Shown here: positions 25,101 through 50,228 of the stretch, piece by piece
How positions within the stretch are numbered: the first letter of the stretch is position 1
Layout: the number at the start of each line of letters is the position of its first letter
Made by a program: the position numbers and the translations under genes
Source: a virus
Taxonomy: Duplodnaviria; Caudoviricetes
IMG/VR virus record: IMGVR_UViG_3300037418_002332
DNA length: 64,000 nt
Strand: one strand, 5' to 3'
The notes under the pieces: generated by a model
What the model saw: only the letters and a program-made list of their open reading frames with translations
What the model was told of the DNA's origin: nothing
Database searches by the model: none

Positions 25101-25715
25101 ATGTTTAAGAAGGCTGCGTTCGTAATTGCTGGTTTGCTGACTGCGACGCAGCCTTCATTCGCAAGTCCGCCCGATGTTTTCGGTTCCGTCGCGATCAAAC
25201 TCGGTAATGTTTCGATCGACGAAAAGTGGTTGCCGATTCAAAAAGAAATCGACGCATGTGTTGATGGTAGTTGCTTCACTCCCGAATTCAAAAAGTTCCT
25301 CGCTGGGTTGAAAGGCAAGACCTTTAAGGATCAGCTTGAAGCGATTAATCTCCATGTGAATCAAATCATCAAATACAAAAATGACGTTGATGATGAATGG
25401 ACAGGTCCTGGCGAAACCCTTGCTCGCGGTTATGGTGATTGTGAGGATTATGCAATTCTCAAGTTGACTGCATTGCGCAATATTGGTATTGATTCCCAGT
25501 ATCTTGCGATGGTCGTTGTGAATTTCAAAGGCACTGATGGCAAAGTCAATTACCATGCGGTAACCACGGTTTCAACAAATTTCGGTTATCAGGTTTTGGA
25601 TATCGTCACCAACGCGGTTTATAACGATTCAACCAACCACGTTTACTTTCCGTTATACTCTTTCAGCGATAATGCAGTTTATATCGCTGGAAGGAAAGTG
25701 AGCAATGGCAATTGA
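25101..25715 (+). CDS. secreted transglutaminase-like cysteine proteinase (BTLCP/LapG family)
   Basis: Signal peptide MFKKAAFVIAGLLTATQPSFA; GDCEDYAILK, YHAV, VLD catalytic triad pattern. Confidence 0.85.
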   Translation: MFKKAAFVIAGLLTATQPSFASPPDVFGSVAIKLGNVSIDEKWLPIQKEIDACVDGSCFTPEFKKFLAGLKGKTFKDQLEAINLHVNQIIKYKNDVDDEWTGPGETLARGYGDCEDYAILKLTALRNIGIDSQYLAMVVVNFKGTDGKVNYHAVTTVSTNFGYQVLDIVTNAVYNDSTNHVYFPLYSFSDNAVYIAGRKVSNGN

Positions 25716-46847: not shown

Positions 46848-47692
46848 TACCACTTCCCTCTATTGATAAATGGTGATTGATCAGAATAATCAATGAGCAC
46901 TTCACCATTCTTTTGCAACAATTCATTATCAGCTTGACTATCTTTGTCTTCAATCACGTTGTTTTCTTCAACCAACACATCATTGCCTGATTGATCTTCA
47001 ATTGGGTCTCCATCTTCATCATCAAGAGCCTTTGGAAGTTGATCAGTGCTTAACAAAGTATTAAATGCATCAATTGCATCATCACCAGTATCAAATTCTT
47101 CGTTGTTGTAACGGAACAACTCGCACTTCAAATCATATGTAAGTAGAGTGCCAAGCGGATGGAACAAGTTTTCATGTTCTACGAATAGAATTTCAAAAAT
47201 TTTATCAACCATAGGCATGTAAATCAAGTCGCCAGCCTTCGGAAATGATGCTTCAACTGAATAATCACCACCAGGACCGTTTTCTTCAGTCAGCGTTACA
47301 GTTTCATAAGGTGTCCAATCAGGTGATTCAGCAGGTTCAATTGGATTACCATATTCATCCAACACTTTTTCTTCATTTGATTCACGCCAACGACGTCTTG
47401 AAACTGTGAAAGTAATTTGATCACGTTGTTCTTCACCAAACATGGTCATGATTTCATTCTGACCTTCATAGTTATCATATGATTTGACGTAAACTTCAAT
47501 TTCAAACGCATAATTGAATTTGGCAAATGTATCATCACCAAAAAGTGGATCACGTTCGAACTGTTCTCTTGGTATATAACGAATGAACATGCCATTCATT
47601 CTGATTGCTTGAATGATCAAATCCTCAATCAACTTTTGTCGAGGCTTGAAAAAGTAGTTGTTAACGAACGGATTTGGTGATTTTTCAACCAT
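46847..47692 (-). CDS. neck protein (gp14)
   Basis: EDLIIQAI.M.G..I.YIPRE, D.LFG.D, FGEE.RD, P.AGDLIY.P, FEI.FVEHE. Confidence 0.92.
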   Translation of the reverse strand: MVEKSPNPFVNNYFFKPRQKLIEDLIIQAIRMNGMFIRYIPREQFERDPLFGDDTFAKFNYAFEIEVYVKSYDNYEGQNEIMTMFGEEQRDQITFTVSRRRWRESNEEKVLDEYGNPIEPAESPDWTPYETVTLTEENGPGGDYSVEASFPKAGDLIYMPMVDKIFEILFVEHENLFHPLGTLLTYDLKCELFRYNNEEFDTGDDAIDAFNTLLSTDQLPKALDDEDGDPIEDQSGNDVLVEENNVIEDKDSQADNELLQKNGEVLIDYSDQSPFINRGKW

Positions 47693-48444
47693 TAAGCGAT
47701 TTCATCCAATACTGGGAAGTTGCCTGTTGAGATGAGCTTTTCTTCAAGCTTATCAATTTCATCAATAGCTTCTGAATACATCGTTTGAGCATCTAAAGTG
47801 ACACCATTCAACAATGGAATGTTTGAATACAACTTCAGATTTTCTGCCCACTGACGTTTCATCAACGCAGTTGCATATCTCTTCAACCAACGATCTTGCC
47901 AGATAGAAGCATATTGATTAGGGTCAAGGAAAGCTTCAGTTTCAAAGATGATTTTATTACCTAGAACCATGATCTGTTGACCAGCTGCACCGTAAATTTC
48001 AACAGTGTTGGTAATCTTGCTGAAACGAATTGACGGAGTAGTGTTGAATAGGAAATTGATATCCGCCAATCTTGTCATAGCCACGTAATATGGAATGAGT
48101 GTGTAAGAAACATTATGATTCATGTTGTAAAATTCATCGCGGAGATACTGATAACGATCAGACATCCAACTAGAGTCAAAGTAACCAACAGGTGGCAGAA
48201 TGTTGGATACAGTCATGATAGTTTCCGGCAAATGGATTTTACCAGTGTCGATGTCTTCTTGAGTTATGGTATGAATATAGAGTGACTTTTCTGAACCGAG
48301 ATAGTGATAATCTCGATAAAAAGCTAATGCATCGTCTATTCTATCCATTGCTTGTTCATTCTCAACGTTGACTTGGATTACAGGCCATCCTAGACGACGG
48401 AAAATGTATGCTTTGAATTCTGCTTTTGATCTTGGTTCTGCCAT
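47692..48444 (-). CDS. neck protein (gp13)
   Basis: PRSK.EFK.YI.RRLG.PVI.VNV, DRWLKRYATALMKRQW..NL, GVTLD. Confidence 0.93.
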   Translation of the reverse strand: MAEPRSKAEFKAYIFRRLGWPVIQVNVENEQAMDRIDDALAFYRDYHYLGSEKSLYIHTITQEDIDTGKIHLPETIMTVSNILPPVGYFDSSWMSDRYQYLRDEFYNMNHNVSYTLIPYYVAMTRLADINFLFNTTPSIRFSKITNTVEIYGAAGQQIMVLGNKIIFETEAFLDPNQYASIWQDRWLKRYATALMKRQWAENLKLYSNIPLLNGVTLDAQTMYSEAIDEIDKLEEKLISTGNFPVLDEIA

Positions 48445-48522
48445 GGAATTTCCTCTGGTTTATTCATATTTATTCCCTAAAGAAAAACAATCTTCCTTTA
48501 AAAATTTAGCTTTGGATAACTC

Positions 48523-48551
48523 TTGACTTCAAGCGTAGTTAAGCGCAAGCT
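48523..48551 (+). promoter_or_regulatory. host-type sigma70 promoter candidate
   Basis: (C)TTGACT-N17-CAAGCT upstream of the 49-aa ORF. Confidence 0.45.
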
Positions 48552-48586
48552 AATAATGCGAGGGGATTTAGAGGGAGTACCTGAAA

Positions 48587-48736
48587 ATGAAAGCAATATG
48601 CGCTCTGTGCGTAGCCATTTTCATGGCTGCGATTCAACCTCAAGCATCTCGAGCATGCACTGATCAATCCATGTGTGATGGGTTTCTTGGCGGCGGAAAT
48701 AACCAAAACCATAATTCTGCTGGCAATCACAATTAG
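48587..48736 (+). CDS. 49-aa putative secreted peptide (not in ORF track)
   Basis: gagggag RBS; MKAICALCVAIFMAAIQPQASRA signal-like segment followed by CTDQSMCDGFLGGGNNQNHNSAGNHN. Confidence 0.6.
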   Translation: MKAICALCVAIFMAAIQPQASRACTDQSMCDGFLGGGNNQNHNSAGNHN

Positions 48737-48783
48737 TTGAAGATTTGCTTCAAAGGTGAGAGCGGGTTGGGGATCTTTGGAGC

Positions 48784-48830
48784 AAAAAGGTGGTGGCCCA
48801 GGTGTGACCGCGTCGGGCCACCACTTTCTA
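48784..48830. terminator. GC-rich hairpin, probably a bidirectional terminator
   Basis: GTGGTGGCCC / GGGCCACCAC 10-bp stem flanked by AAAAA and TTT. Confidence 0.7.
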
Positions 48831-48841
48831 GAAGAAACCTC

Positions 48842-48870
48842 TTGACTTTATCTAAAATTTTAGGCATAGT
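48842..48870 (+). promoter_or_regulatory. host-type sigma70 promoter
   Basis: (C)TTGACT-N17-CATAGT, placing +1 near 48877. Confidence 0.7.
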
Positions 48871-48876
48871 GGTGTT

Positions 48877-48993
48877 GTTCTGGAGCTTGCCTAGCCTCTC
48901 CCTTCTGTTCCATGGGATGGGTGAGTTCTGGAAACCCACCGCGAGTCCGCCACTCCCCCCTTCGGTTAGGATCGCGGTGGGTTCTTCATTTTT
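48877..48993 (+). ncRNA. candidate small regulatory RNA with two CU-rich-loop hairpins
   Basis: 15-bp stem (6 G-U pairs) 48878-48933 with CCUCUCCCUUCU loop; 12-bp perfect stem 48933-48983 with CCACUCCCCCC loop; U-run 48989-48993; promoter upstream; no RBS-led ORF. Confidence 0.65.
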
Positions 48994-49594
48994 ATGAAGG
49001 CCAATAAGAATTGTTGGTGTAGTCCGTTGGAATTGGACTGGTGGATTTAATTGCTCTCGCGGCAAAAATGCACTTTGTTTCCCATGATGCGGCTGCTTGA
49101 CCGAAAGCAAAGCACGTTGGAGCATCCATCAAATTCAGGCTGTTATCATCAGCGATCCAAACGAAATCTGATGTACCTCCATGCCAACGATAGTTTCCTG
49201 CTGCGGCTCCAGCAGCCATTGCGAACCCTGCTAGAGTCGCTGCTCCGATGATACGAGCCTTGGACTCGTTGTCCATCGCGTAGCTTTTACCGTTGAAAGT
49301 GAACCCTGTTGCGATTCGGCGATCGCGCTCAGCATTCACTTCAGTTGACGTTACAACTTGAGCAACAGTTGACCAAACATATTTTGGAATACCATTGGTA
49401 ACAACAACCGAAACTGATGTTGGAATACGACCAGCTGGAATTGGATCGGCAGAAACAATTTCTTTCAATGTATGCGTAGCGTTTTCCCAACCAGCATATG
49501 CTGGGGATGTTTGATCATTACCAATCGTAAATGATCCACCAGGAAGGACTTCCTTCACGAAACTTGCGTCTGACTTCTTAATAAGTGCTAGCAT
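48992..49594 (-). CDS. tail-fibre-associated protein (DUF4376-like C-terminus)
   Basis: VNAERDRRIATGFTF.G..Y..D..S..RI.GA, WIADDNS...MDA. Confidence 0.7.
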   Translation of the reverse strand: MLALIKKSDASFVKEVLPGGSFTIGNDQTSPAYAGWENATHTLKEIVSADPIPAGRIPTSVSVVVTNGIPKYVWSTVAQVVTSTEVNAERDRRIATGFTFNGKSYAMDNESKARIIGAATLAGFAMAAGAAAGNYRWHGGTSDFVWIADDNSLNLMDAPTCFAFGQAAASWETKCIFAARAIKSTSPIPTDYTNNSYWPS

Positions 49595-50228
49595 TTTTTA
49601 TCCTGTTGTAAAGTTCAATGTCTTGTTCATAGTATTTATTGACAGCATTTCGTGTATCTTCATTGTAAAACCTATCAACAAATTCCTTTGTATCATGACC
49701 ATTAATGGACTTGTTTTGCCATTTCAATGGTTCCTTAACTTCAACTCCATATGTTTCAACAAATTGATTAATATGTTTTTGGATGTTATCAAATAGCCAC
49801 CAAGTTCCAACTTGTTTACCTTGATATTCCAAAAATGTATGCTGTTCTTGATTTTGCCAAAGTGTGTCTGGATAATATCCACTCATGACACTTTCTCTGA
49901 AATGCTGAACACTCGGATTTGAAATCAAACCTTGTTTTGCTCTATACAAATACAAGCTCAATACACGTTCAAATGGTTCTCTGATAACTCCAACGATAGT
50001 TTCATTCAAATCAATTAATCCATGTTCAACTGCATATTCAACATCCATATGGGAATGTGGTGCATGAACACCCATACCTTGAGACCAATGATCAGTTGGA
50101 GTGTTGTAATATGCAGTGTAACGATCTTCAGGACCAACTACATTATCAATAAAAAACCGTCTAATTGATGTAGAAGCATTCTTCGGAACGTTGATGAAAT
50201 TGAATTTATACTTTCGTATGCTTATCAT
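49578..50228 (-). CDS. sulfotransferase family 2-like protein
   Basis: PAPS-binding-type FINVPKNASTSI and IREPFERVLSLY; Y..D.ELY C-terminus. Confidence 0.82.
   Translation of the reverse strand: MISIRKYKFNFINVPKNASTSIRRFFIDNVVGPEDRYTAYYNTPTDHWSQGMGVHAPHSHMDVEYAVEHGLIDLNETIVGVIREPFERVLSLYLYRAKQGLISNPSVQHFRESVMSGYYPDTLWQNQEQHTFLEYQGKQVGTWWLFDNIQKHINQFVETYGVEVKEPLKWQNKSINGHDTKEFVDRFYNEDTRNAVNKYYEQDIELYNRIKNASTY

Follow-up and report, generated by a model that had tools for sequence, protein, structure and literature searches.

A credible but unproven gene for a small, predicted Sec-exported peptide in a lineage-specific insertion of an uncultured T4-like soil phage

Introduction

Does a 49-codon open reading frame (ORF) that lies against the direction of the structural genes of a T4-like phage encode an exported peptide, or is it an accident of the DNA in which it is found? 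The question was raised by an earlier note on a 64,000-nt stretch of phage DNA (hereafter the window), which described a cassette with a promoter-like box, a strong ribosome-binding site (RBS), a secreted peptide and a hairpin of its own, placed next to a candidate small RNA (sRNA). Whether a cell that already carries a phage is open to a second infection is decided by small exported phage proteins, Spackle, Llp and Cor among them, which gene callers easily overlook. In this study, the translation signals, the predicted export signal, the homologs, the surroundings and the regulatory elements of the ORF are described and weighed against other explanations. The ORF is probably a translated gene, and the description of the locus as a lineage-specific insertion with an orphan gene for a small protein is credible but unproven.

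The phage and the genes around the ORF

The window is part of the genome of an uncultured T4-like soil phage whose DNA turns up in metagenomes of soil and rhizosphere; across the region, contigs from three more soil runs match it letter for letter and show no variation. The cultured phages closest by gp13 are Ochrobactrum phage vB_OspM_OC (39%; hereafter phage OC) and the Sinorhizobium phiN3/phiM12 group, and the tail-fibre-assembly (tfa) protein shares 54% identity with the tfa protein of Agrobacterium phage Atu_ph08. Together with the soil and rhizosphere source, these relatives make an alphaproteobacterium of the soil the probable host. A permuted tmRNA (tag ...AA) was also found in the genome by ARAGORN.

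In the whole genome, 205 of the 254 ORFs of at least 100 aa are located on the + strand, and we infer that this majority strand is the early strand. Only one long minus-strand block is present (45520-75328), which holds the structural genes, and the peptide ORF sits within it. The T4-type minus-strand genes around the ORF encode gp15 (PF16724), gp14 (PF11649) and gp13 (PF26809), and beyond tfa a sulfotransferase gene and further tail-fibre-region genes follow. As stated in the earlier note, the ORF runs against the surrounding structural genes: it is on the + strand, and both flanking genes, gp13 and tfa, are on the - strand. This placement on the majority strand of the genome, inside a minus-strand late block, counts in favor of a real gene. 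The coordinates of all features are collected in Table 1.

The tfa protein is 74-76% identical to that of IMG/VR phages (loci L005-L009) whose gp13 is only 38-41% identical, and the GC content of tfa is above that of the genome. The host-range module looks as if it has been swapped horizontally between otherwise distant T4-like soil phages.

Table 1. Features of the tfa/gp13 junction and of comparable junctions. Positions are those of the window unless a locus is named.
Feature	Position	Strand	Description
Window	105197-169196		Bases of the 247,119-bp IMG/VR record (these positions are those of the record); completeness estimate 97%
gp13 neck protein gene	47692-48444	-	Left flank; PF26809
Gap between gp13 and tfa	48445-48991		547 bp; peptide cassette and sRNA candidate
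-35-like box CTCTTGACTT	48520-48529	+	Copy 1 of a direct repeat (15 nt, 13/15 identical)
Leader (5') and its two G-rich boxes	48560-48577	+	GAGGGGA 48560-48566; GAGGGAG 48571-48577
Peptide ORF	48587-48736	+	ATG start, 49 aa, TAG stop
Predicted Sec signal peptide	48587-48655	+	Codons 1-23; n-region MK, h-region of 14 residues, c-region QPQASRA
Predicted mature 26-aa peptide	48656-48736	+	Codons 24-49 and TAG stop; C-x5-C loop, Gly/Asn/His/Gln-rich tail
GC-rich hairpin	48787-48827	both	13-bp stem with arms 48787-48799 and 48815-48827, 12/13 complementary; 15-nt loop
Second copy of the direct repeat	48834-48848		15 nt
sRNA candidate	48839-48990	+	Second CTCTTGACTT box, CATAGT -10 at 17 nt, two hairpins with C-rich loops, terminator
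DUF4376 tail-fibre-assembly gene (tfa)	48992-49594	-	Right flank
Same-strand gene directly upstream of gp13	L005:3612-4028		138 aa
Same-strand gene directly upstream of gp13	L014:2088-2483		131 aa, DUF1353
Same-strand gene directly upstream of gp13	L015:1622-2017		131 aa, DUF1353
Phage OC cassette	L003:4294-4954	opposite	ORFs of 54, 91 and 68 aa; TTGACG box; GGGCC hairpin terminator

An insertion at a variable junction

With 45.9%, the GC content of the gap between tfa and gp13 exceeds that of the genome (39.8%). In phiN3, the tail-fibre gene is followed by tfa and then gp13 with a 13-bp gap, and in phage OC the gene before gp13 abuts it. Eight IMG/VR loci encode a tfa protein that is 55-76% identical; in one of these gp13 lies 24 bp on, and in four a same-strand 138-aa gene occupies the slot. 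Six metagenomic contigs with a gp13 that is 59-64% identical have a same-strand gene 2-37 bp upstream, which is a DUF1353 gene in two. Thus, 13 related loci either have gp13 next to tfa or to another gene of the same orientation, with gaps of 0-37 bp, or have the slot occupied by a same-strand gene. The tfa homolog of Agrobacterium phage Atu_ph08 has no comparable small gene downstream of it. Comparisons of the gap DNA with phages, with the rest of its own genome and with 18 related loci gave no match, and these loci also have no similarity to the peptide.

Judged by these junctions of the relatives, the whole 547-bp gap is, as far as sequence comparison can tell, an insertion that only this phage lineage has, and its relatives differ in what they carry at the junction. 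Such an insertion would fit an acquired accessory cassette, and the tfa/gp13 junction appears to be a hot spot for gene gain. The peptide ORF and the neighboring sRNA candidate fill the insertion, which none of the examined related phages has, and the picture of a compact island that had been drawn from the window is therefore a fair one.

Translation and export signals of the ORF

The 49-aa frame quoted in the earlier note is the exact translation of the ORF, which overlaps no long ORF in an otherwise gene-free gap. The GAGGGAG described as a strong RBS is, by sequence, among the strongest of the genome: it is spaced 9 nt from the ATG, and its duplex with the anti-Shine-Dalgarno (SD) sequence has an energy of -8.0 kcal/mol, a value attained by 9% of the long ORFs of the phage versus 0.3% of 1542 spurious ORFs that lie inside other genes.

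The N-terminus had been described as a Sec signal with an A-x-A cleavage site. It was examined with a von Heijne-type rule set that asks for a basic n-region, 8-17 uncharged residues whose hydropathy averages 2.0 or more, and, within 3-9 residues, small side chains at the -3 and -1 positions. The peptide starts with Met-Lys at positions 1-2, and Asp and Glu are absent before residue 26. The h-region, AICALCVAIFMAAI, consists of 14 residues with a mean Kyte-Doolittle hydropathy of 2.9 (hand calculation), and the c-region, QPQASRA followed by Cys, is polar, with the small residues Ser and Ala in positions -3 and -1; its proline, at -6, is outside the stretch from -3 to +1 in which the classical rules allow no Pro. 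All features of the classical rules for a cleavable type I Sec signal are therefore present, a rule-based judgment made from sequence only. The cleavage site stands as a small-x-small motif in A-S-R-A before Cys (Ser at -3, Ala at -1) but is not strictly A-x-A. The predicted 26-aa mature part with its C-x5-C spacing and Gly/Asn/His-rich tail had been read correctly, and its cysteines are Cys24 and Cys30.

The same rule set also catches a protein of this phage that belongs to a known family, the BTLCP/Peptidase_C93 transglutaminase-like cysteine protease (204 aa, 25101-25715, + strand) with the signal peptide MFKKAAFVIAGLLTATQPSFA followed by S, which provides an independent check that the rules find real signals in this phage. 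The end of its signal, ...TQPSFA before S, resembles the c-region of the peptide. The Peptidase_C93/BTLCP family is periplasmic, and the phage-encoded BTLCP protease may be a periplasm-directed enzyme.

Does chance account for the frame?

The main alternative is that the 547-bp insertion is purely regulatory or non-coding and that a frame of 49 codons stayed open by accident in DNA that is richer in GC and poor in stops. The two strong hairpins would then belong to the sRNA unit and terminate transcription in both directions, serving the tail-fibre operon of the minus strand, and the G-rich boxes would be elements of RNA structure or pairing. This explanation is less likely than a real gene and has to be taken seriously. 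The length of the ORF by itself is unremarkable, as an ATG ORF of at least 30 aa arises in 95% of shuffles of the gap, and the gap, poor in stop codons, is overlapped by four further ORFs of 46-130 aa, for which no family and no homolog were found.

What chance does not readily produce is the combination of signals. The signal rules, which were drawn up after the sequence had been seen, fit 12 of 1261 small ATG ORFs (~1%). A strong SD and the signal pattern occur jointly at four of the 3726 ATG starts in the 247-kb genome; apart from the peptide, these are long ORFs of 204, 105 and 242 aa, of which the 204-aa one is the family-confirmed BTLCP protease. In dinucleotide shuffles of the gap, the joint pattern appeared three times in 5000. 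The strength of the SD and the rarity of the joint pattern count for a real gene. In addition, the ATG start and its SD spacing are near ideal, and the hydrophobic run is followed by a well-placed proline and small residues, all of which argue against an accidental frame.

The composition of the ORF is divided. The GC content by codon position is 0.52/0.46/0.38, so that GC3 is the lowest and close to the GC3 of the neighboring genes (0.35-0.36), and this likeness to the neighbors counts for a real gene. The codon-usage log-odds of -0.002 bit/codon is below 96% of real-gene 50-codon windows, and 18% of the spurious ORFs equal or exceed the peptide ORF and 82% score lower. The codon usage is ambiguous, and this score, together with the stop-poor gap, counts against a real gene. 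The same holds for the predictions made for the product: the ESM recognition score of the peptide is low (1748), and the AlphaFold2 single-sequence model is unconfident (pLDDT 58), with residues 3-13 helical at low confidence.

Homologs of the peptide were sought widely. A tblastn search of 50,697 phage records returned chance matches only (E=6), and back-translated patterns of the peptide gave nothing in IMG/VR, the JGI metagenome contigs or 185,579 genomes. A word search of 5.8 billion proteins was likewise empty, as were comparisons with Pfam, PHROGs and NCBIfam at E values up to 10, with PDB sequences and with the ESM Atlas, and the phage's own genome contains no paralog. The strongest test, an exhaustive HMMER search over 1.84 billion representatives, yielded seven matches, all long proteins with 4-11 matched stretches each. 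The two that were inspected are internally repetitive and were rejected as relatives. Since neither a homolog nor a related phage with the cassette was found, selection on the frame has no evolutionary support, which counts against a real gene and is in line with a chance ORF.

No RNA trace of the ORF was found, which fits chance but says nothing by itself, since the phage is represented by just two 151-nt contigs from one rhizosphere metatranscriptome run. These match the sulfotransferase gene exactly at 49608-49907, ~900 bp from the ORF; they are the sole RNA-library trace of the phage and may be carried-over DNA.

Promoter box, hairpin and direct repeat

Two regulatory elements of the cassette hold up in part. 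The promoter-like CTTGACT seen upstream of the ORF is present as a -35-like box but has no acceptable -10 element at 16-19 nt (CAAGCT is found at 17 nt and TAATAAT at 22-23 nt). A consensus promoter scan called no promoter at this box and did call one before the sRNA candidate. This incomplete sigma70 promoter counts against a real gene and favors a chance ORF. The 10-mer of the box has five exact copies in 247 kb, mostly within genes. The box lies within an imperfect inverted repeat (48517-48541, AACT CTTGA ct TCAAG cgt AGTT), and another copy, at genome position 47436 on the - strand, is framed by a similar CTCTTGA...TCAAGAG palindrome. The direct repeat was also considered as a recombination scar and rejected, as an exact 10-mer repeat arises in 13.6% of the gap shuffles and is not significant alone.

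The GC-rich hairpin that the earlier note assigned to the cassette is indeed located downstream of the ORF, beginning 50 nt past the stop, but its T-tract is better on the opposite strand: the letters after it are TTTCT on the + strand, where the hairpin folds at -28.0 kcal/mol, and CTTTTTG on the - strand, where it folds at -23.4 kcal/mol. It is at least as plausible that the hairpin is a terminator for the minus-strand tfa operon or bidirectional, and the better minus-strand T-run counts against the peptide cassette and for a chance ORF. The sequence of the hairpin has no match in IMG/VR, and Rfam and tRNA scans of the window were empty.

The neighboring sRNA candidate and the membrane-anchor alternative

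On the + strand, the elements follow each other in the order -35 box, leader with two G-rich boxes, ORF, hairpin, -35 box with -10 element, a two-hairpin unit of ~115 nt and a terminator. The cassette had been placed directly upstream of the sRNA candidate, and this is the case: the hairpin ends ~14 nt before the sRNA promoter TTGACT-17-CATAGT (48842-48870). The longest exact complement between the peptide mRNA and the sRNA candidate is 8 nt. When partners were ranked by the loops alone (duplexfold of the whole sRNA gave meaningless long-loop duplexes), the translation-initiation region of the peptide took ranks 5 and 11 among 388 genes for pairing with the two loops; this high rank, despite an 8-nt complement, is due to the two strong G-rich boxes in the leader. 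The best partner is the RBS of a different gene, with an exact match of 14 nt and -29.7 kcal/mol. Regulation of the peptide mRNA by the sRNA candidate is possible.

Loop 1 of the sRNA candidate complements L020:76-89 (genome 68575-68588), which is the RBS region of a 242-aa ORF (L020:101-826). The 242-aa protein carries a predicted signal peptide, and the two best-looking targets of the sRNA candidate may therefore both be exported proteins.

The pairing is also the basis of a second alternative, in which the gene is real and its 49-aa product stays uncleaved in the inner membrane with a short periplasmic Cys tail, as a regulator of a sensor or as an sRNA-repressed peptide resembling a type I toxin. 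MgrB, a small protein, regulates a membrane sensor. In favor of this reading, the product is a short hydrophobic peptide that ends in a polar tail, its gene is in tandem with an sRNA gene, and there is complementarity between the pair of C-rich sRNA loops and the pair of G-rich boxes in the leader, which account for both high ranks. However, 14 hydrophobic residues are few for a transmembrane helix and usual for the h-region of a signal, and they are followed by a good peptidase site. Known type I pairs have a complementarity of at least 18 nt, whereas the pairing here is limited to 8 nt in SD-type boxes and the best target of the sRNA is another gene. In addition, no match to Hok/Gef, Ldr, MgrB or any Pfam or NCBIfam family was found at E values up to 10. 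A membrane anchor is thus an unlikely reading of the peptide.

The TAG stop and the weakest alternatives

The ORF ends with TAG, which is followed by 86 in-frame sense codons, and the phage encodes a tRNA with the anticodon CUA (genome 36522-36598, ~68.6 kb before the start of the window) that has two acceptor-stem mismatches. TAG is also the rarest stop among 360 ORFs, ending 33 of them, against 172 for TAA and 155 for TGA. Read-through would result in a 136-aa secreted protein, or the ORF could be the stump of a longer acquired gene. However, the extensions past TAG-ended genes elsewhere in the phage are short, with a median of 13 codons, which indicates that TAG is a working stop, and an extension of at least 86 codons follows 8% of all genes. 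The extension of the peptide ORF would have to cross the hairpin, the sRNA promoter and the sRNA itself, and the 136-aa product has no Pfam, PHROG or database homolog. Both forms of this explanation are very improbable.

Lipidation of the peptide would require a lipobox of the form [LVI][ASTVI][GAS]C, and PROSITE PS51257 forbids charged residues at -2 to -4. An Llp/Cor-type lipoprotein, cut by signal peptidase II, lipidated at Cys24 and blocking a receptor in the outer membrane, draws on the cysteine directly after the predicted cleavage site and on a gene beside a host-range module, as for llp (PMC9586334), but it is the least credible of the alternatives, since by eye A-S-R-A before Cys24 is no lipobox and the Arg at -2 (with Ser at -3) excludes it, and no similarity to any Pfam or PHROG family was found.

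A proposed function for the exported peptide

The locus is best explained as a genuine ORFan cassette of this lineage, encoding a 26-aa peptide with a disulfide loop that is exported by Sec and acts on the envelope, a reading that stands at about even. It would have arrived within the 547-bp insertion, at the variable junction of the tail-fibre/neck module. Early transcription by the host RNA polymerase would start from the weak CTTGAC box or from a start that has escaped recognition, and translation from the strong SD is plausible. Sec would export the pre-peptide, signal peptidase I would cleave it behind Ala23, and DsbA would close Cys24-Cys30 into a 7-residue ring. The predicted product is a periplasmic peptide of 26 aa and 2.7 kDa with a flexible Gly/Asn/His tail. 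This peptide could bind an envelope component, such as the receptor of the phage, its entry pathway or a periplasmic sensor domain, and binding might alter the surface of the infected cell, for example by excluding superinfecting phages. The adjacent sRNA might damp translation of the peptide by pairing its C-rich loops with the two G-rich boxes of the leader.

Even if the gene is real, an envelope-binding role of this kind is a tentative proposal that may well turn out otherwise. Its position beside host-range genes and the precedents of Spackle and Llp make superinfection exclusion, or masking of the receptor or entry, the best single guess. A diffusible signal acting before lysis is unlikely: a 2.7-kDa peptide is far above the size limits of porins, and the lack of an evident outer-membrane route before lysis argues against it. 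A more far-reaching idea would be a self-regulating two-gene module new to phages, in which an exported looped peptide is combined with an sRNA that pairs with its leader and, through the 14-nt match, with the RBS of another secreted protein, timing envelope-directed factors; the peptide would perhaps also be released at lysis as a signal to neighboring cells. This idea is improbable. Phages are full of small accessory ORFans, and the cassette is thus ordinary in kind.

The peptide is a prediction from a single genome, and for now it is of value because its export and its effect on superinfection could be assayed at low cost on a clearly defined sequence. If it is real, the tfa/gp13 junction would be a landing site for accessory cassettes, and the peptide would belong to a group of phages of soil alphaproteobacteria for which no such exported factor was found in the searches.

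Comparison with known systems

Several known systems resemble the locus in part. Two candidates were dropped because their defining features are absent, namely an arbitrium-type signal and a MotA-type middle promoter. An HxsA-type effector was rejected as well. This periplasmic effector has several His-x-Ser repeats, a peptidoglycan-binding domain and rSAM partners (PMC13128918); the peptide has a single H-N-S, no domain and no NCBIfam match.

The organization of the cassette resembles that of the promoter-early stem-loops (PeSLs), which flank ORFan cassettes in the T4-type phages RB49 and phi1, some of them, rarely, inside virion modules (Arbiol et al. 2010, PMC2839356). As in these phages, a small ORFan bounded by sigma70-like boxes and by a strong stem-loop occupies a plastic site within a virion module, the unit is flanked by the box repeat (13/15), and the stem-loop lies just upstream of the next promoter. 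However, PeSLs are a multi-copy family with ~50 members per genome and full consensus promoters (PMC2839356), whereas the first box of the cassette has no -10 element, the 10-mer has five copies in 247 kb and the genome contains the gap DNA once. The resemblance is therefore purely organizational.

A closer parallel in arrangement is found in phage OC (MT028491), where three small opposite-strand ORFs lie in the same module with their own promoter-like box and a hairpin terminator. This cassette is located at the gp13/gp14 junction instead of tfa/gp13, has no sequence similarity to the one described here and contains no ORF with a cleavable signal; its 54-aa ORF is strongly hydrophobic and would encode a membrane protein. 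It indicates that small counter-oriented genes in the neck module are not exceptional. The phage OC cassette, the PeSL-flanked ORFans and the precedents of Spackle and Llp count for a real gene.

In terms of the product, the proteins Llp and Spackle are the nearest models. Llp of phage T5 is small and disulfide-bonded, and its gene adjoins the receptor-binding gene; Llp and the Cor proteins of T1-like phages are lipoproteins with a lipobox and ~60 mature residues (PMC9586334). The peptide shares with them the small size, the predicted export, a predicted intramolecular disulfide and a gene beside receptor-recognition genes, and differs in that it has no lipobox (Arg at -2), a mature part of half the size and no similarity.

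Spackle (gp61.3) of phage T4 is an early, periplasmic superinfection-exclusion protein with a cleaved signal and one disulfide; it consists of 97 aa, 75 of them in the mature protein, which forms a helical bundle that inhibits the gp5 lysozyme (PMC7677548). The peptide has no family similarity to it and no confident fold, is 49 aa long (26 in the mature part) and is encoded in a late module instead of the early region. Both are products of accessory genes of a T4-type phage and are small and soluble, with an N-terminal export signal, a periplasmic location and one disulfide, each of which is predicted in the case of the peptide. If the gene is real, its 26 mature residues would make it smaller than both mature Spackle and Llp.
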